Below, one piece after another: positions 6,138 to 60,272 of a DNA stretch of 64,000 bases. How positions within the stretch are numbered: the first letter of the stretch is position 1; each line of letters begins with the position of its first letter. Source of the stretch: an uncultured Candidatus Saccharibacteria bacterium (GTDB lineage Bacteria > Patescibacteriota > Saccharimonadia > Saccharimonadales > JBBQAJ01); NCBI GenBank assembly GCA_964593805.1, contig CAZQHP010000001.1:128091-192090 (forward strand), written 5' to 3'. The notes under the pieces were generated by a model. That model saw only the letters and a program-made list of their open reading frames with translations, made no database searches and was not told the DNA's origin. The position numbers were made by a program, and so were the translations under genes.

Positions 6138-6586
6138 CGCCAGAAGTGGTTCGGCCTACTAAAAAACAGCGCGAACTGCTGGATTTTATTGCGGCATTTA
6201 TAGCTGAGCATGGCTATAGCCCAAGCTACCGAGAGATCATGGCGGGTTTGAACTACACGTCAGTGGCAACTGTTGCCTTGCATGTAAACAGCTTGATAAA
6301 ACGAGGTCATTTGCATAAGCGTGATCATTCGGCTCGTTCGCTGGAGGTAGTGAACGCGGCAGAAACGGCCAAATTGCAAACAAATGAAATTAAGCCAGCC
6401 GACGAAAAATGGCTGGTAGAAAAGGTTGAATTCCGCTTTGACCAGGCTGAAACCCAGCCGAGCTTGCAAAACAGTGAGTTGGATGAGCTGTACGTACTGA
6501 TTGGCGCCCTGAAAGTACTGGGGCTGGAAGGAGCTGCCCAAAGCTTTATTGCCCGCCTTTCCAAATTGAAGAACAAGGTACAATAG
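6134..6586 (+). CDS. LexA-like winged-helix DNA-binding domain protein that lacks an S24 peptidase domain
   Basis: The N-terminus 'KKQRELLDFIAAFIAEHGYSPSYREIMAGLNYTSVATVALHVNSLIKRGHL' matches the LexA N-terminal DNA-binding domain pattern. The remaining ~80 aa are a helical tail with no Ala-Gly cleavage site and no Ser/Lys dyad that I can recognise. Confidence 0.55.
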   Translation: MTPEVVRPTKKQRELLDFIAAFIAEHGYSPSYREIMAGLNYTSVATVALHVNSLIKRGHLHKRDHSARSLEVVNAAETAKLQTNEIKPADEKWLVEKVEFRFDQAETQPSLQNSELDELYVLIGALKVLGLEGAAQSFIARLSKLKNKVQ

Positions 6587-6590
6587 CAGT

Positions 6591-7484
6591 ATGGCAAGTG
6601 TCATATCACTGAAAAATGTTACTAAAATGTATGGTACAAATCTTGGCGTTTCAGACATAACCCTAGACGTAGAAAAGGGTACTATTTTTGGGTTTTTGGG
6701 TCCCAACGGAGCCGGCAAAACTACCACTATAAACATGCTGGTAGACCTAATTCGTCCCTCCAGCGGCAATATAAAAATTTTTGGCCTTGACGCCCAAGCA
6801 GACAGCCTGGAAATACGGCGGCGGATTGGTTTTTTGGCCGGCGATTTTGCTCTGGACGAAAACCTGACGGGCTGGCAGCAGCTGGAATACTTTGGTAATT
6901 TACGCGGCGGCGCCAGCAGGCAAAAGATTAAAACGCTGGCTGAGCGGCTGGATTGCAACTTGGGTCGCCGCATCAAAACGCTGTCGCGGGGCAACCGCCA
7001 AAAAGTCGGGTTAATTTCCGCGCTCATGCACGACCCGGAACTTTTAATTTTTGACGAACCCACCAGCGGCCTTGACCCCCTCATCCAGGCGGAATTCAAC
7101 AAAATTATTTTTGAGCACCAGCAAAAAGGCAAAACGACTTTTATTTCTTCTCACATTTTGAGCGAGATTCAGGAGACTTGCGACCAAGTGGCTTTTGTTC
7201 GCGAAGGCAAAATAGTCGTAAACAAACCTCTGACCGAAATTACCAAAGGCGCGCCGAAAGAAATCCGCATAATCACTAAAGACCCGCAAATCAAATCTGT
7301 TTTCAGATCAATGAAAGGCGTTCACAATTTGAAGGCCATGGGGCTGGTAACCAGTTTTACTTACGAGGGTGAAATTCACGCGCTGCTAACTGTTCTTGCC
7401 AAGCAGAAAATTGAAGACCTGGTTATCCAAGACGCTGACCTGGAAGAAATCTTTATAAAATTTTACGAGGCCCAGGATGTTTAA
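6591..7484 (+). CDS. ABC transporter ATP-binding protein (ABC-2/drug-exporter type)
   Basis: Walker A 'GPNGAGKTT', signature 'LSRGNRQKV', Walker B 'LLIFDEPTSGLD'. Confidence 0.9.
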   Translation: MASVISLKNVTKMYGTNLGVSDITLDVEKGTIFGFLGPNGAGKTTTINMLVDLIRPSSGNIKIFGLDAQADSLEIRRRIGFLAGDFALDENLTGWQQLEYFGNLRGGASRQKIKTLAERLDCNLGRRIKTLSRGNRQKVGLISALMHDPELLIFDEPTSGLDPLIQAEFNKIIFEHQQKGKTTFISSHILSEIQETCDQVAFVREGKIVVNKPLTEITKGAPKEIRIITKDPQIKSVFRSMKGVHNLKAMGLVTSFTYEGEIHALLTVLAKQKIEDLVIQDADLEEIFIKFYEAQDV

Positions 7485-9496: not shown

Positions 9497-10102
9497 ATGT
9501 TTACAGGGATTATCACCGACGTTGCTAAAATCACCGGCCATAAACAGAATAAAGCAGGCCTGCGTTTGACGTTTCAGAAGCCAGTCGGCTGGGACGATTT
9601 GGCGCTTGGCGAATCAATTGCTACCAACGGCGCCTGTCTGACCGTAGCCGAGATGCGCGCCAATGAATATGATTGCCAGCTGGTGCCAGAAACACTAGCC
9701 AAAACATCATTCGGCGTAAAATTGCCAGAAACTGTCAACCTGGAACGTTCGCTAAGTGTTAAAGACCGTTTTGGCGGGCATTTTGTTCAGGGACACGTGG
9801 ACGGCGTGGGCAAGGTGACCAAAATTGATAGCGCTGGTGAATATAGGCTGCACATAAACTTTGACATAGACAAACAAGACCTTGTCATTTCCAAAGGCTC
9901 GATTACCATTGACGGCGTGGCGCTCACAGTTGCCGAAGTCCAAGGAGCGAATTTCAGTATGGCCATAATCCCCCACACGCTGGAAAGCACCACGCTAGGT
10001 TCGCTGAAAGTCGGCGACGCAGTCAACCTGGAATTTGATATGATAGGCAAATACATTGCCAAGATAATGGAGAATCGTGATGCAACACGCAAAGCAGGCT
10101 AA
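9497..10102 (+). CDS. ribE: riboflavin synthase alpha chain
   Basis: Starts 'MFTGII' and contains two lumazine-binding repeats ('GESIATNGACLTV', 'GSITIDGVALTV'). Confidence 0.85.
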   Translation: MFTGIITDVAKITGHKQNKAGLRLTFQKPVGWDDLALGESIATNGACLTVAEMRANEYDCQLVPETLAKTSFGVKLPETVNLERSLSVKDRFGGHFVQGHVDGVGKVTKIDSAGEYRLHINFDIDKQDLVISKGSITIDGVALTVAEVQGANFSMAIIPHTLESTTLGSLKVGDAVNLEFDMIGKYIAKIMENRDATRKAG

Positions 10103-10541
10103 CTTTAGTATTTTTGATGCCCAGGACTGGAAAATCGGCATAGTAGTGGCACAGTTTAACCGGCATATAACCGAAAAACAGTACCAAAGTGCTCTGGAAA
10201 TGGCAGAAAAATACCATATTCCCCCAGAAAATATCACTACCATCCGCGTGGCCGGAGCGATTGAAATCCCGCTAGCTCTGCAAAAACTGGCGAAAAGCGG
10301 CCAGTACCAAGCACTGCTGGCACTCGGCTGCATTATCCAGGGAGAAACGCCGCACTTTGACTACGTGGCTAAATATGTAACAGAGGGAATCTTGCGGGTT
10401 CAGCTGGACCATTCCACCAGCATTGGCTTCGGTATCTTGACCTGTAACAACGAACAGCAAGCCATAGACAGAACTCAATTAGCTGGCGAACATCTGGAAG
10501 CTGCGCTACAGCAAGCCAAGGCTCTGAACACCTTGGCATAA
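10077..10541 (+). CDS. ribH: 6,7-dimethyl-8-ribityllumazine synthase
   Basis: 154 aa. 'KIGIVVAQFN...VAGAIEIPLA...ALGCIIQGETPHFDYV' is the typical RibH core. Confidence 0.85.
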   Translation: MMQHAKQANFSIFDAQDWKIGIVVAQFNRHITEKQYQSALEMAEKYHIPPENITTIRVAGAIEIPLALQKLAKSGQYQALLALGCIIQGETPHFDYVAKYVTEGILRVQLDHSTSIGFGILTCNNEQQAIDRTQLAGEHLEAALQQAKALNTLA

Positions 10542-10629
10542 CCACACTACCCCTAGTGTGCTTATGTATACAAAACTACTACATGTAGCGTACTGATAGC
10601 GTGCTAAACTACTAGACAGTTCTTTATTA

Positions 10630-10790
10630 ATACAAAAAGCTGGAATCCCGTGCAATTCGGGAACTGTGCCGCAACGGTTTACCCTGAGCTTGTCGAAGGG
10701 TGATAGTCCGATACAGCTTATTAAGCCTCCCGAGCAGGAGCAATGAAGCTGCCTTCATACCCTTGCTCCCCAGGAGAGCGAGGGTTTTTT
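10630..10790 (+). promoter_or_regulatory. candidate cobalamin (B12) riboswitch with an intrinsic-terminator expression platform
   Basis: 'GGAATCCCGTGCAATTCGGGAACTGTGCCGCAACGGT' matches the conserved cobalamin-riboswitch core (compare 'GGGAATCCAGTGCGAATCTGGAGCTGACGCGCAGCGGTAAGG' in E. coli btuB). It is followed by the B12-box-like 'CCCTG...GAAGGGTGA' and 'AGTCCGATACAGC'. Then comes the hairpin CCCTTGCTC/GAGCGAGGG plus T6 at 10760-10790. Confidence 0.5.
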
Positions 10791-11952
10791 GGAAGCAATA
10801 GCATTTCAGCCAAATATAACTGAACAGCGTCAAGAGCAACTTGAAGCACACTACGACGCCATAACGCAGTTTAGTGAATTGGTAGACGGCAGTATGCGTA
10901 CATCGTTTGAGCTCAGTTTCGATGGTCAAGAATTATTTGGCCAAGATGGGCGGGCACTTGGAGATGTCACTCAAGATGCATTATACGAAGCCAAGCGAAT
11001 TGTAAAAAACAACCCAAACTTGTGGTTTGAAATCCGACGCCGAAGCCTAGAAGCTGAAGAAATAAAACTAGCTCGCCAAATGGCTCGTGGCGAATTGCCC
11101 AACACCATGATTATTCCGTCTGATTTTCCTGCAGAACTTGAAGATTCAAAGGAAGATATTGGTGGTTACAACATCACACGAAAACAAACCATGCTACGTG
11201 TGTTGGCTCTCAAGCCTGACGGCAATATCCAGTTGTATTCACAAAGTCTGGATGGCTCTGACAGAACGTCGCTAGAAGCGATATATGCTCATTTTGGCCA
11301 GATGCCGGAGCCAGGCGAGTTACTCGGCCAGCGTATTCACGTTGATCTGTCACCTGATGAGCAGGTTGACTTGGTTGATCGCTTGACGGGTATATATGAC
11401 CGTAGCATGTCCTCTAATTACGGTGGTGAATGGTATGCGGGTCGTCGTCCGGCTGACTATCGGAATACCTATGATTTTGTATGTAAACAAAATGACTTAG
11501 TAAGCGAATGCGTACGACTAAGGTTGTCTAATGAACTAACCGACAGGCGTATGTACGACCTAGCAGCTACTATGCAAAAACGCTTTAAAGCAAAAAAACA
11601 AATCGCCGGTAGTTCATGGGCATACTCAGTACCAATTTCTTCAGAATTGCTACATCATGAAATTAAGGTTGCCGGTACAGAAGCCAGGGAGCGAGGTGAT
11701 ACATTTAGCTCATGCGGGGGGACGCTAAAATCTGAAGATTTCGATCAATCAACAGAAAATCAACTGGAATTATCTGGATATGGCAATAAGAGTTCAGAAG
11801 ACGACGATTGTGTATATATTTCCAAAAAATGTCCGGAATGCGGAATTAAAAACGTTAGAACTACAGTTAGTAAAATAAAAGGAACGAATAAAAAAAACAT
11901 TAGCGGAAGCTGTGGTTGCTCAATAACCGTCACAATTAAGAACGTAGTATGA
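10789..11952 (+). CDS. hypothetical protein with a C-terminal Cys-rich zinc-ribbon-like tail
   Basis: 387-aa ORF with no family I recognise. The tail reads 'CVYISKKCPECG...GSCGC'. The start is ambiguous: TTG at 10789 lies inside the terminator U-tract just after GAGGG, and the first ATG is at 10894. The stop overlaps the nadD start (ATGA). Confidence 0.55.
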   Translation: MEAIAFQPNITEQRQEQLEAHYDAITQFSELVDGSMRTSFELSFDGQELFGQDGRALGDVTQDALYEAKRIVKNNPNLWFEIRRRSLEAEEIKLARQMARGELPNTMIIPSDFPAELEDSKEDIGGYNITRKQTMLRVLALKPDGNIQLYSQSLDGSDRTSLEAIYAHFGQMPEPGELLGQRIHVDLSPDEQVDLVDRLTGIYDRSMSSNYGGEWYAGRRPADYRNTYDFVCKQNDLVSECVRLRLSNELTDRRMYDLAATMQKRFKAKKQIAGSSWAYSVPISSELLHHEIKVAGTEARERGDTFSSCGGTLKSEDFDQSTENQLELSGYGNKSSEDDDCVYISKKCPECGIKNVRTTVSKIKGTNKKNISGSCGCSITVTIKNVV

Positions 11953-45351: not shown

Positions 45352-45427
45352 TGGTGGGGGTGGTTGGAATCGAACCAACTACCAAGACGTTATGAGCGTC
45401 CTGCTCTAACCGATGAGCTACACCCCC
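45352..45427 (-). tRNA. tRNA with CAU anticodon (elongator Met or Ile2/k2C), CCA encoded
   Basis: Hand-folded cloverleaf: GGGGGTG/CACCCCC acceptor, GCTC/GAGC D stem, GGACG-CTCATAA-CGTCT anticodon arm and GTTGG-TTCGATT-CCAAC T arm. Confidence 0.85.
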
Positions 45428-49591: not shown

Positions 49592-50437
49592 CTATTTGCA
49601 GTAGTCACTGGTTTTGCCAGCTTTGTCGTCGCCGCCGGGCAGGGCTTTGATGGTAGTTTTTTCGTTGCCGGTAAGCAGATCTAGCCAGCAAACCGCGTAA
49701 AAAGCCTGCTCTTTATCTTGCGCATGTTCGCTTGCGTAAATTGAATTTTTAGAAGCTTCGTTTTGGCTTCTCAGGTCATAAACGCCAAAGTCAACCGCTG
49801 CGTTTCCGGTTTTCACAAAGCCGACGGCTGTCGCGATTACGTCGCCTTGGCTAACCAGTACCGGGTTGTCAAAACGCGTTGTACGGGAATCATCAAGCTT
49901 GGCGGCTGGGAGCAGATCAACCTGCTTTTGCATCTCGGCTGATACGGTCAATAGATGGTCAAACCGAAAGGCTATACCGCATGGGTTGACGAAAAACAGC
50001 AATATCTGGACCTCGCCTCCTTCAATGTAGCGGCTCCCCAGCGTCAGATAGCCGCTAGTAGGCGCTTTTACCGTTACGTCATTTTTCTTGTCAGCAAACC
50101 TAAAACCTCCGTGTGGCTTGTACTGGCCCCGGGTTTGGCCCGGATAAAGCACCGCTGTTGGCAAACTTACGTCAACCGGTGAATTTAGTACAATCGGTTC
50201 GCTGCATTTTGGCGCTTTGCCTTCGGCTTGCCACTTATCTCCACTAAAGTCCCAGTTTACAAATTCACTTTTTGAAACCCCAGTTGATTTTTCTTGGTTT
50301 GGACTTGTTTGTGAGCTGTTGCTTTCGGTTTTTTTAGATCCCAGCACGCGCCAGCCAGCAAAACCGACAACTGCAATTACTACTACGACTAAAATTGCTG
50401 CTAGATGTGCAATACCTGTTTGGTTTAATTTTTTCAT
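49592..50437 (-). CDS. pilin-like N-terminal helix fused to a LytM/M23-like beta domain (degenerate prepilin site)
   Basis: The start was moved to 'MKKLNQTGIAHLAAILVVVVIAVVGFAGWRV'. The core 'VKAPTSGYL...FRFDHLL...VSQGDVIA...AVDFGVYD' follows the M23 duplicated-hybrid pattern without the catalytic His residues. Confidence 0.6.
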   Translation of the reverse strand: MKKLNQTGIAHLAAILVVVVIAVVGFAGWRVLGSKKTESNSSQTSPNQEKSTGVSKSEFVNWDFSGDKWQAEGKAPKCSEPIVLNSPVDVSLPTAVLYPGQTRGQYKPHGGFRFADKKNDVTVKAPTSGYLTLGSRYIEGGEVQILLFFVNPCGIAFRFDHLLTVSAEMQKQVDLLPAAKLDDSRTTRFDNPVLVSQGDVIATAVGFVKTGNAAVDFGVYDLRSQNEASKNSIYASEHAQDKEQAFYAVCWLDLLTGNEKTTIKALPGGDDKAGKTSDYCK

Positions 50438-50600
50438 GTATTTATCCTGCTTATGCTTATAACTATAACTGATGTTTGAGGCAAAGTTATAAATGATAAA
50501 AAAATCTAGCCTTTTACGGGGAGATAATTTACAGGTTATTAAACTGCAAAGATTAACTCCTACGTAGGTGCGTCTTCTTAACACCCATGATCAAAGTGAC

Positions 50601-51956
50601 TTAGTTTGAATTTAGCTGATACTGCTGGTTATCATCAAGCGTGGTTACAATAAAATACTTTTCGCACGGCTTATTAAATCTGCCGCAGTCTTGATTATCG
50701 TCATTTAGGGCAGAGACGTAGGCGTATTGACTGCCACTGAGTCCAATCAAGCGGCCTGCTGGGTCTTTAAATATGTCTAAGTCAGCGCCAGGCATTTGGC
50801 TACGAATAAATGACTCTTGGTCTACGCTCATTTCGTTTCGCTCTGGGTAGTGACCAGTCTTTGCTTTGTATATTTCTAACGCAGTTTTGATACCTTTTAA
50901 GTCAGCTATACGCTCTTTGTCGGTATCGCTTTTGGCCTGCTGGTACTGTTTATTAAATAACTGCGTGAGCACAATGCCATAGCCCAATTTGCTAGTGAGT
51001 TTTTCGGCCTGAGGCGCTACGATTGTGTTGCTGTCATTCGCAACTGTTTTGAGACTAAATGTGGCGTCGCTAAACGGTCTACCTTCGTACTGGATTTGTT
51101 CTATGATTTTGGTGTCCGTGTTTACCCACACATCAGCGGTAACGGTATCTGCTGATACCCCTGTGTTTGGAAACAGCGTAGAAAGTACAGGCACATTCGC
51201 TGAACCATCAATACGTGAAGCTAATTGCGTAAATGCATCTTTTGTAAGTGTCACCGTGTATTTGCGAGTAGTCTTGCCGTTAAGTGTTTCTTCTGCACCT
51301 ATTGATGTGAGCGTCATACCATCAAAGTTGCTTGATTCTGAAGCAGTAGTTGATTTGCTAACAGGTTGCTCAAAGATGTAGCCACCTACTTCCAGCCACT
51401 GGTCTTGGTTGCTAAATAGGTTGCTGGTTTCTGTAAACTCGGCTATCTTTTCCTGAATGCCTTTGGGGCCAAAGTTACTGTAGTGCGTTGCTAGTTTTTT
51501 AAGGTCTTCAAATTGTGAAAAGTTTACATAGTAATTTCCGCTTACTTTTCTTACTACTAACTCCGGGTTTTGCAAAAATGTACTAGTTTGGATTGCTACC
51601 TCAGAATCACCAGCTGCGCTGGTCTTTATTGTGTAGTTAAAGTCAGGGTCATTTGGTCCTGCCTGGTCAAGCTTGCCACTTACTGTATATGCACCAGGGT
51701 TCGACACGTAGTTGGAAACGGCTTTTTTAAGCACATTTTCAGGCTTGTTCGGTAGATATACTAAAGCAACATAAGCAGTTGCACTTCCCACGAGCAATAC
51801 ACATAGTACAACCACAGCTAAAATAATAAGGGATTTCTTTTTACTTTTTGCGTGCTGTTGGTCGCTTGCTGGCTGTATAGGCGAAGCAGGTTGCTCTGTT
51901 TGATTTGTTTGTGGTTCTGAGTTCTGACTATCATGAATTTGTTGTGAATTTTCCAT
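50601..51956 (-). CDS. membrane-anchored protein with a C-terminal pseudopilin/GspG-like globular motif
   Basis: The start was moved to 'MENSQQ...'. Has a TM at 'LIILAVVVLCVLLVGSATAYVALV'. The C-terminus reads 'RIADLKGIKTALEIYKAKTGHYPE...'. Confidence 0.5.
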   Translation of the reverse strand: MENSQQIHDSQNSEPQTNQTEQPASPIQPASDQQHAKSKKKSLIILAVVVLCVLLVGSATAYVALVYLPNKPENVLKKAVSNYVSNPGAYTVSGKLDQAGPNDPDFNYTIKTSAAGDSEVAIQTSTFLQNPELVVRKVSGNYYVNFSQFEDLKKLATHYSNFGPKGIQEKIAEFTETSNLFSNQDQWLEVGGYIFEQPVSKSTTASESSNFDGMTLTSIGAEETLNGKTTRKYTVTLTKDAFTQLASRIDGSANVPVLSTLFPNTGVSADTVTADVWVNTDTKIIEQIQYEGRPFSDATFSLKTVANDSNTIVAPQAEKLTSKLGYGIVLTQLFNKQYQQAKSDTDKERIADLKGIKTALEIYKAKTGHYPERNEMSVDQESFIRSQMPGADLDIFKDPAGRLIGLSGSQYAYVSALNDDNQDCGRFNKPCEKYFIVTTLDDNQQYQLNSN

Positions 51957-52087
51957 ATACGAAAAGCATAGCACGGAGTATACTTTTTAAATACTCCGTT
52001 AAGATAAAATAACAAAATGGGATTAGCCAACAGTGTCGCCCTTATTCTATGGTTAAACCCTGGAATAAAATCGGTTAGGATTAACTA

Positions 52088-52648
52088 CTATGGCGTGGGC
52101 GACAGGGCGCTGAATTTAACGTCCGCCGGCACTGTCAAAACCGATTCATCAACTGACCAGTCCTTGCACTTTAGAGAAAAATCTTTGCCAGCCGTAGCGG
52201 TACTGCTAGTGGTCGGCGACCCAGTGTTTTGGGTTTGAATTGTGCTGGCATCAAATACAAAACCAAAACTGCCGCTGTCGGTCTTTGTCCAGCTGTACAC
52301 TTTGTCGCCGTTTATTAGGGTATTGGCTTGCCCAGAATTGCCTCGTTCTGTCACAAGGTCCAAAATTACTCGTCCTCGGCCTTTGCCATCGGTGTACATT
52401 TTGCCGTTCCCGCTGCCAGCCCCGTCCGAATAACTCAAAGTACATTCTCTGGCTTTGCCGTCACTACGCAAACTTTGCAAACTGCCTTGGATTTCTGTTC
52501 CCTCAACTTCTTTAGACGATTCTGTTTTTGGGTTTTGTGTGGTTTGGACATTTTGTTTTTTGTCTGAGTTTTTATTCATAATAAAGTAACCGCCCGCGCC
52601 CACCGCTACTAGCAAACCAATTAAAATTCCTACTAGTTTTACGTTCAT
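52088..52648 (-). CDS. membrane-anchored hypothetical protein
   Basis: 186 aa with the N-terminal TM 'LVGILIGLLVAVGAGGYFIM'. Confidence 0.5.
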   Translation of the reverse strand: MNVKLVGILIGLLVAVGAGGYFIMNKNSDKKQNVQTTQNPKTESSKEVEGTEIQGSLQSLRSDGKARECTLSYSDGAGSGNGKMYTDGKGRGRVILDLVTERGNSGQANTLINGDKVYSWTKTDSGSFGFVFDASTIQTQNTGSPTTSSTATAGKDFSLKCKDWSVDESVLTVPADVKFSALSPTP

Positions 52649-52692
52649 AAAAACCTCCTATTACATGGACTATTATCTCACCTAAACGACTA

Positions 52693-52791
52693 CTATTTAC
52701 AATAATCACCGGCTTCGCTCATTTTATCATCTCCGTTCGGCAGGGATTTGAAGGTAGTTTTTCATTTTCCAGGAGCACATCTAGCCAATAA
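52693..52791 (-). pseudogene. decayed C-terminal tail of 52792..54024, homologous to the tail of 49592..50437
   Basis: This DNA aligns by eye, at roughly two-thirds identity, with 49592-49700. With one stop and two frame changes it reads 'YWLDVLLENEK/TTFKSLPNGDDKMSEAGDYCK*' versus 'CWLDLLTGNEKTTIKALPGGDDKAGKTSDYCK*'. Confidence 0.55.
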
Positions 52792-54024
52792 TTACCTGGC
52801 GTAAACCTTGGCAGAACTAGTAAACCCTGCGACCGCTGAACACGATTTTTTAACAAATGGCTCGGCTTTTACTTGGCGGTCTTCTATCATTTGAACCAGC
52901 AAGCAGCCCTCTGTTTGGTCGACGTTTTTGACTTTCGGTCCTTTGATTAAACTCTTATTGTCCCAAAACGCTCCACTGGGTTCTAGGTAGCTGTATTTCT
53001 GCAGTTCGTATTTAACTAAACCGGTATCTTTGCTGACTGTTGCTGGGTCGGGCGCGTTGCCTTTGGCGGCAAACTGTTCGGCGTTGCCGCCAAAGTCCCC
53101 GATCGAGATATTAAAGTGCGTGGGATCATACAGGTTCGGGGCAATCGACAGGTGCGTACTAGCATATGTATCGCTTCTGCCCTGGTTTGTGCCACTGTAG
53201 CCGCCGCTGCCGCTAACAAACCAGTTGCCGACCAGTTTGCCGTCTATGTCGTGATCAATTTTGCCGGATCGGGGTTCGACCGTTCTAGGGTTTCTAGCTT
53301 CCACGATGACCCGAAGCTCGGGCGTGTACATCGGCAGCGGATCAGCCGTAAAAATCTTCCAGGCTTCACCGTCATAACTGGCCGGATTTACAAACCCGGT
53401 TAATGGCTTGTCGGTGTCCCAGTAGGCAAAGTCCAGCGTTTGCCCGCCGATCATGCCCACTTGCTCGCCGGCCTTTATAGGCATATTGACGCTCCGATTT
53501 TTTTCATAAGCTTCCTTGACTTTGCCGCTCAAACTGGTAACTAAATCGTAATAATAAAGCGAGGTGCAGCTATGCGCGAAAACAAACCGGTATTCCGTGC
53601 CTTTGTTATTAGTGCGCGGCTGGATGTCTACAATTTGGGCGTCAGCCATAGCGTAAACCGGGTAGGCGTCACGCGGCGAATTGTAACTTGCCGGCGAAAA
53701 ATACTGGTGATCAATAGGCGTTACATGGTATCCAACCACCAAACCGTAAGGTACTATTATGCTGAAGTCTGATTCTTTCATTGGCAAATGAGTGAAAGTT
53801 AGTTTTTCAGTTCCACTGCATCTGTTGCCGCTTATGTGCTTGCCTGCCTTGACGGCTTTATTCTCAGACGAGTCGTTGCTACGTAAAATCTCTGACGGCT
53901 TACCGCCACCGCTCTTGTTTAATTGCTTGGATACTCGCCAGCCAACCATCCCGATAACTGCAATGACAACTATAATAATAACTAGACCAATGTGGCCAAA
54001 GCCATCAGCTCGCTTTCTCTGCAT
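52792..54024 (-). CDS. pilin-like N-terminal helix fused to a LytM/M23-like domain plus an extra C-terminal domain
   Basis: 'MQRKRADGFGHIGLVIIIVVIAVIGMVGWRV' and 'PVYAMADAQIV...IKAGEQVGMIGGQTLDFAYWD'. Confidence 0.6.
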   Translation of the reverse strand: MQRKRADGFGHIGLVIIIVVIAVIGMVGWRVSKQLNKSGGGKPSEILRSNDSSENKAVKAGKHISGNRCSGTEKLTFTHLPMKESDFSIIVPYGLVVGYHVTPIDHQYFSPASYNSPRDAYPVYAMADAQIVDIQPRTNNKGTEYRFVFAHSCTSLYYYDLVTSLSGKVKEAYEKNRSVNMPIKAGEQVGMIGGQTLDFAYWDTDKPLTGFVNPASYDGEAWKIFTADPLPMYTPELRVIVEARNPRTVEPRSGKIDHDIDGKLVGNWFVSGSGGYSGTNQGRSDTYASTHLSIAPNLYDPTHFNISIGDFGGNAEQFAAKGNAPDPATVSKDTGLVKYELQKYSYLEPSGAFWDNKSLIKGPKVKNVDQTEGCLLVQMIEDRQVKAEPFVKKSCSAVAGFTSSAKVYAR

Positions 54025-54169
54025 ACCTAACCAGAATATACCCGAAAAGTAGTTTGCACAAACCGTTTATGCTAGAGGGGACAACCCATAGCGTCCTGAA
54101 AAACCTCGTCCTTGTCGTTCATACCTGCATAATATCAAAACACCTCAGAGGAGGGTTGGCGGCCGCCCC

Positions 54170-54949
54170 CTATCTGCCTTCGGCTTGGGCGGGTGTCAGA
54201 GTTTTCATGATGCACCCAACAGGACTTTGGGCAGCGGTGTCATATAACTCAAGGCCCGAGGTTGATTCCCAGTTTTGTTGCATAGCAGCCAGATCGGCCA
54301 AAAGCTTATCTTTTACTGAAGCCGCTACCAGTGTAGACGGACAGTAGTGTGTGGTGCTGCCGTTTTCGTCTTTGTTTATCTGAATCTCAAACCTTGTGAA
54401 GCCATTGTTTTGCATGGCTGGTTCGCCGATTTTGTCGCCCGCTTTTACTGCGTCACCTTGCTTAACTTTAACGTTAATCAAGTGGTCATAGCCGATTGTC
54501 CAGACAGAATTTTCTTTGGGCTGCAAAAAGACTTCATAGTCGCCTGTTTCCGACTGTTGCTTTACAAAACCCACGACTCCGTCAATTGCCGCAACTACTT
54601 TGGTACCTGCTTTTAGAGACGCAAATTCAAAGTTCGGGTTGGTGCGCCCGCCGCTCAGTTTATCTCCGAACACGTAGAAGCCTTTAAGCCCCTGGGACTG
54701 AAAATCTCTCAGCGCTTGAGAAGTCACATCCACATCGTCCAAACTTTCCAGGCCAAAATTTTGCAATTCGACATCTGCCTCGGTTTCATCTTTCGATTCG
54801 TTTTGCTGGCCGGCTTGGGTTTGATTAGACGGCTCGCCTTTGGTCTTAAAAACTTGCCAGCCGACAAAACCAATTACTCCAACTACTAAAAATACGATTA
54901 CTACTTCTACGGCATGAAATCCAGCTTGGTTTAGTTTTTTCAAGTTCAA
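54170..54949 (-). CDS. type IV prepilin-like protein fused to a LytM/M23-like domain
   Basis: 'KKLNQAG|FHAVEVVIVFLVVGVIGFVGW' is a class III signal with G-1, F+1 and E+5. The core is 'GTKVVAAIDGVVGFV...YDHLINVKVKQGDAVKAGDKIGEP...FTRFEIQI'. Confidence 0.7.
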   Translation of the reverse strand: MNLKKLNQAGFHAVEVVIVFLVVGVIGFVGWQVFKTKGEPSNQTQAGQQNESKDETEADVELQNFGLESLDDVDVTSQALRDFQSQGLKGFYVFGDKLSGGRTNPNFEFASLKAGTKVVAAIDGVVGFVKQQSETGDYEVFLQPKENSVWTIGYDHLINVKVKQGDAVKAGDKIGEPAMQNNGFTRFEIQINKDENGSTTHYCPSTLVAASVKDKLLADLAAMQQNWESTSGLELYDTAAQSPVGCIMKTLTPAQAEGR

Positions 54950-55015
54950 TTCCTATGTTACTACCATAAGCATAATTCTGGGTGGACAAAACTACAATGG
55001 TTCAGATTATCGAAA

Positions 55016-55642
55016 TTAGTCCGCGAATGACAACGAATCAAACATTTCTTTGGAGATTTGGCTATATGTCGGTGTATTGCCAAAGTTATCTTCATACAGC
55101 AATGTTTTCGTAGGGCTTAGTTCTATAAAATAGTAAGTGATCGATCCCGAGCTAGGTGTTTTGGTGGTTATTTTCTTGCCCACGTGTCCATCTTTGTTGA
55201 TGCCAACGATGTCGACTTTACTAGTGTCTTGTATGCCTGCATAGGCTCCTCTGGCCATAGCTTCTTCTACATTGCCTTCAATCACTCGCAAATAGTTAAA
55301 ATCATGCTGGGAACCAACGTATCCTACAGATACTAGGTATGTATCCCCCGAATAGCCATCGATTGGACCGAGTGTTCTTCTGTCATCCGTGCGTACTTCC
55401 CAGTCATCAGGATACTGAACGCTGAATTTGAATTCTAGATTGGTGTAAGTTTTAGCAGTATCTTTGACCTTTGTTGTTATCTCTTCGGGTTTTGGTTGGC
55501 TGTTTGTGACCTCGGCTTGTTGGACTGGTTTGTCTTCTTGTTGTGAGTTATAGACATACCAGCCCGTGCCTCCAATGATCCCCAGAACAATTACTATTAA
55601 CAGTCCTTCTACAGCCGAAAACCCACTTTGATCTATTTTCAT
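55016..55642 (-). CDS. type IV prepilin-like protein with an unrelated globular domain
   Basis: 'MKIDQSG|FSAVEGLLIVIVLGIIGGTGW' carries the canonical G/F...E5 prepilin motif. Confidence 0.7.
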   Translation of the reverse strand: MKIDQSGFSAVEGLLIVIVLGIIGGTGWYVYNSQQEDKPVQQAEVTNSQPKPEEITTKVKDTAKTYTNLEFKFSVQYPDDWEVRTDDRRTLGPIDGYSGDTYLVSVGYVGSQHDFNYLRVIEGNVEEAMARGAYAGIQDTSKVDIVGINKDGHVGKKITTKTPSSGSITYYFIELSPTKTLLYEDNFGNTPTYSQISKEMFDSLSFAD

Positions 55643-55668
55643 ATATTCTCCTTATGCTTATTGTCTCA

Positions 55669-55712
55669 TAGAAAAAAGACCCGTCAAAAGATGAGTCGTT
55701 TTTCTTGGTAGC
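55669..55712 (-). repeat. copy of the tRNA(CAU) 3' end plus terminator block (att-like direct repeat; also a terminator for 55807..56403)
   Basis: The 44 nt 'tagaaaaaagacccgtcaaaagatgagtcgtttttcttggtagc' align with 56644-56686 at about 75% identity by eye, including an identical 'ttcttggtagc'. Confidence 0.5.
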
Positions 55713-55806
55713 TCTTGTTAATTCGAATTGGAACCTTCTTCTTGAGGAGTCGAGTAGATGGAAGATGTTATTGAGCCTCGATAATGTAATAAATTAGAAC
55801 ATTAAC

Positions 55807-56403
55807 TTAGGATGGAAGCACAAATTCAATTCCTACCTCAGCAAGCAAACAACTGATTCCTCCAACGATTGTTTCTGGATCTGTGGCAAAACCAAATTCC
55901 TTCCCAGTTGCCCCAATGTCACTGATTGGGTGCAGATAGCCTGGGCTAAAACGATATGCCGTATATCCATTTGAAAAAGTATCGACTACGCCAACCCTAT
56001 AATCTTCAGTAGCAATAATCTCGTAGACATTAATGCCTCCATAACTTGATTCTTTGCCCTCAAAAGCACAATTAACCGTTCCAATAGGCCAGCCACCTAT
56101 TAATTCCAAGATTTTTGTATATTTTCCCGACCAAATAGTATCCATTTCTTTAAAAACTTCAACGGGGCTTTTTTCTACATACTTGTTCAGAAGGGGTATA
56201 CCTTGTTCCAATATATGCGTGACCGCAAGTCTGCGTTGTTGCTCTGCATTCGTTTGTTCACGTTTTTCCCGTGCAAAAAATGGAAGCCGACGTGGCTTAG
56301 TAGGCGAAGTATAGTGCTTTAGGAGTGGGCGTGGCTTTCTCTCGGGCATACTCGAATATTCGTTCAATTGTATGAAAAACGCAAGCATTAGCAAAAAGAA
56401 CAA
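55807..56403 (-). CDS. hypothetical cytoplasmic protein, bracketed by tRNA-derived repeats
   Basis: 198-aa ORF. The likely start is 'MPERKPRP' at 56349. No family recognised. Confidence 0.45.
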   Translation of the reverse strand: MFFLLMLAFFIQLNEYSSMPERKPRPLLKHYTSPTKPRRLPFFAREKREQTNAEQQRRLAVTHILEQGIPLLNKYVEKSPVEVFKEMDTIWSGKYTKILELIGGWPIGTVNCAFEGKESSYGGINVYEIIATEDYRVGVVDTFSNGYTAYRFSPGYLHPISDIGATGKEFGFATDPETIVGGISCLLAEVGIEFVLPS

Positions 56404-56488
56404 ACAAGACTAGAACCGAAGTAACAGAGTTGGATAAAACAGGGAAGAAAAAAGAGACTGGCTTTGGAACCAATCTCTATCTGTAAAG

Positions 56489-56640
56489 TCTTTCTTGGTA
56501 ACGGGGCAGAACAGCGGACTTCGTCCTTCTCCGCAAAGTCATGCTCTGAGCAAGCTCATGCGCGTGGCTTTGCTACGCCGAACCTGCGACTACGCCTGAG
56601 CCTGTGGCTCATGCTGTCGCAGAACCCAGCCAGCTTCAGT
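56489..56640 (-). other. tRNA(CAU) 3'-half-like remnant interrupted by a ~68-nt insert
   Basis: On the minus strand, 'GTCGCAGGTTCG' is identical to the tRNA variable/T-arm sequence. About 68 nt follow, then 'TTCTGCCCCGTTACCAAGAAAG' (the tRNA has 'CCTGCCCCCGCTACCAAGAAAAG'). No complete cloverleaf can be drawn. Confidence 0.45.
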
Positions 56641-56679
56641 ACCAAGAAAAATACCCGTCACAGGGACGGGCACTTTTCT

Positions 56680-56754
56680 TGGTAGCGGGGGCAGGACTCG
56701 AACCTGCGACCTTGTGGTTATGAGCCACACGAGCTGCCACTGCTCTACCCCGCG
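56680..56754 (-). tRNA. initiator-like tRNA-fMet (CAU), CCA encoded
   Basis: CGCGGGGTAGAGCAGTGGCAGCTCGTGTGGCTCATAACCACAAGGTCGCAGGTTCGAGTCCTGCCCCCGCTACCA. It is very similar to E. coli tRNA-fMet and has an unpaired 1:72 position (C1/U72). It is followed by the long hairpin/terminator 56638-56685. Confidence 0.8.
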
Positions 56755-56964
56755 TCATTATGAGACAAACGTATTCGTCGAGTTTACATCTTAACAAACA
56801 GAGGTGAAAGTGTCAATGATTGCTTACATTAAACGAGTTCGGCACAGATTAGGTTCCAATTCGGTTTTGCGCACGATACCAAGCAGGGATTTTAGCCTCT
56901 TGGGAGGCTAATTTCTTTTTTAAAGCTTAAGTTGTATACTTTGGTTAAATAAGCAGGCAACACT

Positions 56965-60195: not shown

Positions 60196-60272
60196 TGGTA
60201 TCAGGGGCGAGGATCGAACTCGCGACCTCAGGCTTATGAGTCCTGCGCTCTAACCATCTGAGCTACCCTGAC
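60196..60272 (-). tRNA. tRNA with CAU anticodon (Met or Ile2/k2C), CCA encoded
   Basis: GTCAGGGTAGCTCAGATGGTTAGAGCGCAGGACTCATAAGCCTGAGGTCGCGAGTTCGATCCTCGCCCCTGATACCA. It has a G1-U72 wobble and an A31/G39 mismatch in the anticodon stem. Confidence 0.8.

Follow-up and report, generated by a model that had tools for sequence, protein, structure and literature searches.

The minus strand of a 64,000-nucleotide (nt) stretch from an uncultured Candidatus Saccharibacteria bacterium (GenBank contig CAZQHP010000001.1, positions 128,091 to 192,090; the whole stretch is called the window below) carries, behind a tRNA-Met(CAT) gene, partial copies of the 3′ end of this tRNA, which a preliminary description had taken for scars of decayed integrase insertions. 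The tRNA itself, at 56680-56754, is called by both ARAGORN and Rfam (63.8 bits), and its end pair C1:U72, together with a sequence close to that of the Escherichia coli initiator tRNA, makes the term initiator-like reasonable. Its 3′ end runs into a long hairpin (56640-56684) with 20-nt arms that are 90% complementary, the 5′ arm consisting of the ACCA of the tRNA plus the AGAAAAG next to it, and this hairpin is terminator-like as had been proposed. Further downstream follows copy 1, the first of the partial repeats, with two blocks about 66-70 nt apart: CGAACCTGCGAC at 56579-56590 is identical to 56699-56710 in 12/12 positions, and TTTCTTGGTAACGGGG at 56491-56506 shares 94% identity with 56675-56690. 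The sequence TTTCTTGGTA occurs three times on the plus strand of the window, always in this region, and once as an inverted copy at 56640. With about even confidence, copy 1 and the hairpin preceding it (56496-56679, minus strand) can be read as an intact copy of a non-coding element, 150-190 nt long, that belongs to a widespread family which has apparently not been described. In the direction of the tRNA, the parts at this locus are the following:

56788-56816, minus strand: promoter-like site of the tRNA gene, TTGACA-17-TAAGAT with TG, found by sequence scan.

56680-56754, minus strand: tRNA-Met(CAT), the target or partner gene of the element, 75/75 identical in two related loci (L007 and L008).

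56640-56684, minus strand: clamp hairpin (hp1), composed of an A-tract, a GC stem-loop and a T-tract plus TGG that pairs onto the ACCA of the tRNA.

56616-56644, minus strand: antisense arm, an imperfect reverse complement of tRNA positions ~46-76 (TGG, anti-acceptor, anti-T-arm), with 21 of 29 positions complementary.

56591-56615, minus strand: apical hairpin AGCA-TGAGCC ACA GGCTCA-GGCGTA, with a variable stem and flanks (AGCA...GGCGTAG) that recur in the family.

56579-56590, minus strand: A′ block, a sense copy of the variable loop, the 5′ strand of the T-stem and TTCG (GTCGCAGGTTCG, 12/12), from the repeat comparison.

56513-56578, minus strand: conserved core of 66 nt, at T-loop position 57/58 of the partial tRNA copy, delimited by covariation and by the covariance model match at 56504-56591.

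56496-56512, minus strand: B block, a sense copy of tRNA positions 59-76 (GT-TCTGC-CCCGTT-ACCA), from the repeat comparison.

56443-56495, minus strand: trailer AGAAAG and terminator hp2 (11-bp stem, T-run), orthologous to the trailer which directly follows the tRNA in L007.

The clamp hairpin is terminator-like on both strands, an architecture found in every member of the family. The core opens with a long irregular hairpin whose internal loops are conserved; GGAGAAG links it to a small hairpin, after which comes GCT. A segment of about 66 nt does indeed split copy 1, but it is not the unrelated insert of 68 nt of the preliminary description, as it constitutes the conserved core of the family. 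Three tRNA(CAT) genes lie within 15 kb of the window, all on the minus strand (45352-45427, 56680-56754 and 60196-60272), and only the middle one shows the initiator-type 1:72 mismatch and is followed by an element.

The core pattern CGCGCA-N8-30-GRGCAYGNCNNNGCGGARAAG, taken from the conserved part of the element, recovered at least 120 stretches when scanned in metagenomes, while its one match on a viral contig is a duplicate of a metagenome contig. When the pattern matches from all collected loci (numbered with an L) and the window are pooled, genomes and metagenomes of Saccharibacteria have the full core at no fewer than 61 sites, and for 43 of these ARAGORN calls a tRNA within 140 nt upstream on the same strand; the others are cut by a contig end, are second units of tandems (L160, L163, L130), follow an uncalled tRNA (L139/L178) or follow a "...CCA + hairpin" of unclear origin. 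Elements are invariably located on the tRNA strand, and the tRNAs that precede them represent 15 amino acids and 23 anticodons. The order of the parts is constant, with an A/T-clamped GC hairpin beginning at CCA, an antisense copy of positions ~45-76, a variable apical hairpin, often between AGCA...GGCGTAG, a sense copy of positions ~45-57 (variable loop, 5′ strand of the T-stem and TTC(G)), the core, and a sense copy of positions 58/59-76 up to CCA. In about 0.77 Mb of Saccharibacteria-like loci 6-7 elements were counted per 46 tRNAs, which corresponds to roughly one occupied tRNA in 8-10. Other or shortened inserts in the same architecture at T-loop position 57/58, as behind tRNA-Arg-CCT (L113), tRNA-Trp (L133), tRNA-Arg-TCT (L160) and tRNA-Pro-GGG (L144), and a mini-core of 30 nt at the same position behind tRNA-Gly (L049), indicate that the phenomenon is broader than the modelled core family.

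The arms of the elements track the tRNA which precedes them. An antisense arm, about 75-80% complementary, was found in 28/28 elements analysed, and 29 tRNAs have their own last 15 nt repeated directly after the core with at most one mismatch, such as in L028, where the same core stands behind tRNA-Ser(GGA) and the element closes with the last 16 nt of this tRNA, CCCTCTCCCTCCGCCA. The B block begins with nucleotides 58/59-60 of the T-loop, and in most elements examined nucleotide 59 is copied from the own tRNA, be it G or A, with three tRNA-Ala elements carrying an A in the B block where the tRNA has G59; it terminates exactly at CCA, and trailers are not copied. Behind the tRNA shared with the window, L008 has a hairpin and a counterpart of copy 1 that is 75% identical, and L030 has the core twice, with a partly decayed B block behind tRNA-Pro(CGG).

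The alternation of sense, palindrome, antisense, palindrome and sense is also what would be expected if a local accident of replication, by snap-back or tandem-inversion duplication at the palindrome of the terminator, had left a sense-antisense-sense triplication of no wider meaning, and the hairpin behind the B block does repeat hp1 in L130 and partly in L088. This hairpin is unrelated to hp1 in the other 25 of 27 cases, however, the same core with its flanks occurs in at least 61 places and with 23 tRNA species, and the site without an element in L007, described below, has no junction palindromes. As the sole explanation such an accident is contradicted by the conservation at the level of the family, and it is hardly credible. 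Joint duplication of the trailer or terminator with the tRNA tail, considered as a separate possibility, holds true in only 2/27 cases.

The core is a conserved, covarying structure. In an alignment of 38 distinct core sequences over 90 columns (A3), which comprises the T-stem, the long irregular hairpin with three conserved internal loops, the GGARAAG linker and the small hairpin, 86.2% of the cells are paired compared with 28-41% when the partners are slid, 105 cells show double-sided changes compared with 36.5 in shuffles, and such changes occur in 13 pairs; the observed values were reached by 0/500 shuffles. The fold of the window element is likewise more stable than that of shuffled sequences (z = −3.75). 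A covariance model (R1), with the window copy in its training alignment, finds a single site in the window, 56504-56591, with 90.6 bits for what is a training sequence, and strong matches among 80 genome loci (67.6-95 bits) are restricted to L008, L028 and two sites in L030, all of them training sequences as well. Weaker matches are a diverged third site in L030 (33.3 bits) and a site in L024 behind a tRNA-Lys (26.7 bits), and two further matches in genome loci are near noise (E 0.4-0.7). The L024 match, at 6418-6605 on the minus strand behind tRNA-Lys(CTT), lies on a contig labelled Candidatus Pristimantibacillus, the phosphoribosyl pyrophosphate (PRPP) synthetase of which is 68% identical to that of the window, so the bin label may be wrong.

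Covariation of the core indicates a fold of a single strand, with RNA and DNA indistinguishable by this measure. Among the mismatches between antisense arm and tRNA, G:U (52) exceeds A:C (32) when read on the tRNA strand, which weakly suggests the tRNA-sense strand as the one that folds; three conserved A:C oppositions in the core helix, on the other hand, would be G:U on the opposite strand, and the two signals conflict.

As the core is situated precisely at position 57/58 between correct and covarying strands of a T-stem, it might be read as the T-loop intron of a second tRNA gene or of a tRNA 3′ half, all the more as tRNA introns occur in Patescibacteria (PMC13011429). The partial copy lacks, however, the 5′ strand of the acceptor, the D-arm and the anticodon arm, and the sequence preceding the A′ block on its 5′ side runs antisense to positions 46-76; neither ARAGORN nor the Rfam tRNA model calls it, and a complete tRNA of the same identity is located directly upstream. 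The introns known from Patescibacteria are group I introns at position 35/36 and much larger (PMC13011429), and no Rfam match of Intron_gpI to the core was found. An intron-containing or split tRNA is thus a highly improbable identity for the element. In L139/L178 a tRNA-Asn-like 3′ end (GGTCGCTGGTTCGAATCCAGTCCCCGGAGCCA), uncalled by ARAGORN, precedes the element and nested partial cores lie downstream; this 3′ end may belong to one of the intron-containing tRNA-Asn genes described in Patescibacteria (PMC13011429).

Presence of the element is polymorphic. Syntenic loci were collected from 80 species-representative genomes by means of the window's PRPP synthetase, the closest species-level relatives found in this way being Saccharibacteria metagenome-assembled genomes. 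In L007, with a PRPP synthetase 85% identical, identical promoter hexamers and the 75/75 identical tRNA are joined directly to the trailer and terminator which in the window follow copy 1, with an 84% match between L007 920-998 and window 56506-56427. The orientation of the tRNA relative to the PRPP synthetase gene in L007 is opposite to that in the window. Cores that are 95-97% identical, including their freely varying stems, are found behind Met, Glu, Phe, Gln, Asp and Ser tRNAs, and mean core identity is hardly structured by the tRNA, with 0.76 for pairs with the same anticodon and 0.71 for pairs with different amino acids. The core subtype of the window (AAAG/CTTT; AGCAAAG...CTTTGC) clusters with elements of Arg, Asn and Pro tRNAs and is not grouped with the L008 element behind the same tRNA-Met, whereas L104 and L108, on one 734-kb contig, have a stem variant present in no other core. 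Together with the tandem units in L130, L160 and L163, the polymorphic presence and the near-identical cores behind different tRNAs indicate mobility.

Insertion at the 3′ end of a tRNA was also the assumption of the preliminary description, according to which the repeats are attachment-site (attL/attR-type) scars of one or two decayed integrase insertions in the tRNA gene, possibly those that delivered the neighbouring pilin/surface island. It is true that inserted DNA is framed by direct repeats of the tRNA 3′ end and that L007 resembles an empty site; an insertion/deletion polymorphism is retained from this proposal, with a deletion in L007 fitting equally well. The 184 nt between the tRNA and copy 1 are, however, no cargo but a conserved family, as reflected in the 90.6 bits scored by copy 1, itself a training sequence, and in the window and the 38 aligned members a conserved core splits the repeat at the T-loop, which is not a feature of integrase attachment sites. 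No recombinase Pfam match or integrase remnant is present on the genes of 50.4-64 kb, nor does the window hold a large serine recombinase, in agreement with the absence of an integrase noted before. A decayed integrase scar is therefore very unlikely as the nature of copy 1, and the earlier interpretation as a whole is partly supported.

The alternative which is tentatively preferred, at somewhat less than even confidence and by analogy with other systems, is that the element may be a non-autonomous mobile foldback unit specialised for tRNA 3′ ends which would move as a folded single strand of DNA or RNA. In the folded form, the antisense arm would pair with A′-core-B and so imitate the duplex that a tRNA gene has in its T-arm/acceptor part, while the core would bulge out of the closed, folded strand. 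A crossover in the T-loop just 3′ of the core, between the folded strand and the tRNA gene, would provide the tRNA with the B′ of the element and its hairpin as a rebuilt 3′ end, the old 3′ end would remain behind the core, and the enzyme would act in trans. The predicted product would read tRNA(A-x-B′) - hairpin - anti(B-x-A) - apical hairpin - A′ - core - B, and the order of the parts that is observed may be due to such an event, since it is the one expected from a T-loop crossover of a folded strand. Folded single-strand substrates have their precedents in integron attC sites and in the attP(+) of the CTX phage.

Several points weigh against this reading. The empty site in L007 could equally be a deletion between the two direct repeats, and no excised form, junction or trans-acting enzyme was seen. 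Re-matching of four arm segments, two sense and two antisense, to a new tRNA has no demonstrated mechanism. The B block of the window differs from its tRNA by one deletion and one substitution, and the evidence on the folding strand is conflicting as described. That the core is conserved over deep divergence, with compensatory changes, fits a functional RNA better than selfish DNA. Hp1 and the element leave no space between them for a promoter, so that any RNA would have to arise by read-through of a terminator-like hairpin.

Such read-through from the tRNA promoter is what the element would depend on if it were a host or host-tolerated non-coding RNA, the main rival and a possible though doubtful explanation, in which the transcript mimics the T-arm and the 3′ acceptor strand with CCA of its cognate tRNA and carries an antisense segment and a core that binds a protein or ligand. 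Possible functions are those of a decoy, sponge, template or antisense partner of the tRNA or of enzymes and toxins acting on tRNA 3′ ends, and the spread of the element among tRNAs would be secondary. The strongly conserved core, with its compensatory changes and invariant nucleotides in the internal loops, is in line with a functional RNA, as are the stability of the fold and the excess of G:U over A:C in the antisense:sense helix on the tRNA strand. Likewise, the arms match the adjacent tRNA despite differing T-stems (GCAGG and CCAGG initiators in the window, L098, L102 and L109), the B block stops exactly at CCA with no trailer copied, and it is always the tRNA strand that is occupied. An RNA of the host would, on the other hand, hardly be expected at only about one tRNA in 8-10, to differ in presence between L007 and the window though they are close relatives, or to occur in decayed or truncated copies and tandem arrays; near-identical cores after unrelated tRNAs point to recent copying, the element is without a promoter of its own and has a terminator-like hairpin in front, and the orientation of the downstream genes is mixed, with 29 on the same and 18 on the opposite strand. 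Compared with the mobile foldback unit, a non-coding RNA would better explain why the core is so deeply conserved and why the arms match, but it is the poorer account of the patchy, polymorphic and tandem distribution. The mixed orientation of downstream genes also means that the element is not a cis-regulatory leader.

Retroviral reverse transcriptases copy an 18-nt stretch of the primer tRNA with the limits position 58 and CCA. The B block is bounded by position 58 and by CCA too, a hint that the tRNA, as RNA, templates part of the element. Extending the mobile foldback reading, it is conceivable, though on balance unlikely, that a self-retargeting system exists in which the conserved core in the T-loop, perhaps catalytic itself or else the binding site of a recombinase or reverse transcriptase, is equipped with sense and antisense arms copied from the tRNA at the landing site, and which would be a tRNA-templated mobile element or a programmable tRNA-3′-half mimic/antisense RNA without known relative. 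A core of ~66 nt at T-loop position 57/58, with arms re-matched to 23 tRNAs and an additional antisense copy, would represent either a protein-free mobile element that rebuilds its target gene or a new class of tRNA-mimicking RNA in very small bacterial genomes. Partial tRNA copies downstream of tRNA genes are routinely taken as integration scars and used to delimit genomic islands; many of those in Saccharibacteria are instead members of a structured, conserved family, and the delimitation of islands and the annotation of "pseudo-tRNAs" need to be revised there.

Known systems share single aspects with the element. Tyrosine integrases with crossover in the T-loop or at the 3′ end leave attachment-site duplications in tRNA genes, for which Williams in 2002 reportedly provides an example. 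As in these, an intact tRNA gene is followed by a duplicate of its 3′ part, the tRNA has been rebuilt and presence varies among relatives; in contrast to these, the repeats bracket a conserved non-coding family of about 150-190 nt without an integrase, the repeat is split at T-loop 57/58 by a structured core, an additional antisense copy is present, and one core family serves 23 tRNA species. With integron attC and the XerCD-dependent attP(+) of the CTX phage the element has in common that structure is kept by compensatory changes with variable stem sequences and loop tips, that a single strand could recreate a duplex copy of the target, and that units form arrays. No R/L boxes or dif-like site were recognised in it, however, there is no IntI nearby, with Xer not examined, and the arms are copies of a tRNA gene, which leaves the link one by analogy only.

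Short, non-coding, hairpin-rich multi-copy sequences of polymorphic presence are also represented by repetitive extragenic palindromic (REP) sequences and bacterial interspersed mosaic elements, Correia elements, Rickettsia palindromic elements and miniature inverted-repeat transposable elements, and the Rickettsia elements likewise insert into RNA genes. The element differs from all of these types in that terminal inverted repeats with a short target duplication are missing, the only duplication being the tRNA 3′ half, that its internal inverted repeat is a tRNA copy, that it stands strictly behind "...CCA", that its arms are specific to each target tRNA and that the core has conserved internal loops. 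In retroviruses the primer-binding site spans 18 nt, copied up to the 1-methyladenosine at position 58. Similarly to this site in retroviral and long terminal repeat (LTR) elements, the B block corresponds to the 3′-terminal 17-19 nt of a tRNA, from 58/59 to CCA, exact in many members, and begins with TGG on the opposite strand, but no reverse transcriptase or LTR is found near the elements, and the A′ block and the antisense arm extend past position 58.

Transfer-messenger RNA (tmRNA), YrlA/Y RNA, viral tRNA-like structures and T-box leaders likewise have a stem resembling a T-arm and the 3′ strand of an acceptor with CCA, or are complementary to such parts, but the element is set apart from them by the lack of an Rfam match, the interrupted T-loop, a mimicry that varies with the neighbouring tRNA and a position that is not upstream of regulated genes. 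The combination of a conserved scaffold with variable target-matching segments recalls the bridge RNA of IS110, the exon-binding sites of group II introns and the omega RNA of TnpB/IscB; unlike those re-programmable systems, the element has no recombinase, nuclease or reverse transcriptase gene, its arms of 12-30 nt are both sense and antisense, and similarity in sequence or to a model was not found.

In the window region, only the tRNA reaches the gathering threshold of any Rfam 15 model, and no model covers the core at E ≤10, nor at E ≤1 in ten other members of the family. Phage and plasmid collections contained nothing similar, and full-text literature held no account of such elements, its coverage being incomplete so that an earlier description is possible. 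No protein family, recombinases included, is enriched within 6 kb on either side of the elements. Reverse transcriptase, TnpA/TnpB/IscB and Cas1 are equally not enriched over this distance, which disfavours a retron-like non-coding RNA, an end of the IS200/605 or omega-RNA type and a casposon. A tmRNA was dismissed with ARAGORN silent and a GGGGCTGA-like start found only in L008.

The locus L030 is an exception in that an integrase does lie next to an element. Its tRNA-Pro(TGG) is separated from the element by a large serine recombinase and by a pilin gene which, like window 55016-55642, is of the PsbP_2-like type; this element closes with a 17-nt copy of the 3′ end of that tRNA, which speaks for the attachment-site reading. 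At least 359 proteins make up the family of this recombinase, with identities of 60-92% among the top matches. In six further loci of this family (L203-L208), an HTH_17 (excisionase-like) gene lies upstream of the integrase, and the element occurs in 0/6, by which it is rejected as a terminal module of serine-integrase islands; tblastn with the L030 integrase gave no match in the window. In L030 (1463-4476) and in L203-L208 (6/6, around 10001-11890) the 3′ end of the recombinase gene overlaps tRNA-Pro(TGG) on the opposite strand. Integrase islands of the L030 type are tRNA-Pro islands separate from the elements.

Outside the element, the surroundings of the tRNA contain the following further features:

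55670-55736, minus strand: copy 2 or relic R, AGGTTC-CAATTCGAATTAACAAGA-GCTACCA, AGAAAAA and a degenerate hp1-like hairpin, from the repeat comparison.

55807-56388, minus strand: ORF193, an ORFan (an open reading frame lacking relatives) between copy 1 and copy 2.

56851-56911, plus strand: relic L, the inverted partner of relic R (AGGTTCCAATTCG...GATACCAAG; AGGTTCCAATTCGGTTTTGCGCACGATACCAAG), followed by a plus-strand terminator, just upstream of the tRNA promoter.

Copy 2 reproduces the tRNA tail and the hairpin, as the preliminary description had it, with 75% identity over 40 nt (55673-55712 compared with 56647-56686) including the exact 13-mer GCTACCAAGAAAA as a third copy of the tail at 55700-55712; this 13-mer has 2 matches in the window with 0.25 expected. 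It belongs to a segment of 33 nt, AGGTTC-CAATTCGAATTAACAAGA-GCTACCAAG, which is followed by the degenerate hairpin, and an inverted repeat of 33 nt with 73% identity connects 55704-55736 on the minus strand with 56851-56883 on the plus strand. The 13-mer AGGTTCCAATTCG shared by the two occurs only in these places of the window, with 0.06 expected. In both relics similarity to the tRNA is lost right after GGTTC and regained at (G/C)TACCAAG, and both arms end in ...TACCAAG before a terminator-like hairpin. From this inverted pair it follows that a block of 1.18 kb, comprising the tRNA, the element and ORF193, is flanked by tail-plus-terminator relics, and the block may be an invertible or once-mobile segment, for which an older element, an inversion or an insertion are candidates.

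These relics are real and speak for the part of the integrase-scar proposal that concerns copy 2, which together with the ORFan could be the relic of an older event. ORF193, the single reading frame between the repeats, has no Pfam or PHROG match, and among 5.8 billion proteins only itself was retrieved; that the sole enclosed gene has no homologue speaks against an integrase insertion, and ORF193 probably does not belong to the element. None of the pilin genes is enclosed by the repeats, the interval of ~184 nt between tRNA and copy 1 is devoid of cargo, and with no recombinase family enriched near the elements, delivery of the pilin island by these events is not supported, no evidence connecting the two. 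The promoter-like site of the first pilin-like gene (55660-55687) overlaps the hairpin of copy 2.

A run of six genes (49592-55642, minus strand) follows on the tRNA strand, four of which encode type IV pilin-like N-termini such as KIDQSGFSAVEGLLIVIVLGIIGG (49592-50584, 52792-54024, 54170-54949 and 55016-55642), and two of which (50601-51974 and 52088-52648) encode a plain hydrophobic N-terminal segment only. The Pfam scan of this run covered three genes, with a Peptidase_M23 domain in 54170-54949, a sub-threshold PsbP_2 match in 55016-55642 (23.1 bits compared with a cut-off of 27) and no match in 52792-54024.

Two GCTCATGC cores, which had been placed in the insert of copy 1 and likened to a motif of another island, are indeed present at 56554 and 56607, but only the one at 56554 lies inside the insert. 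The other GCTCATG sites of the window stand in unrelated contexts, and there is therefore no motif common to both islands. In the whole window GCTCATG occurs 13 times on the plus and 3 times on the minus strand, GCTCATGC 9 and 2 times, respectively, and several GCTCATG sites resemble the ATG-AGC starts of minus-strand genes.

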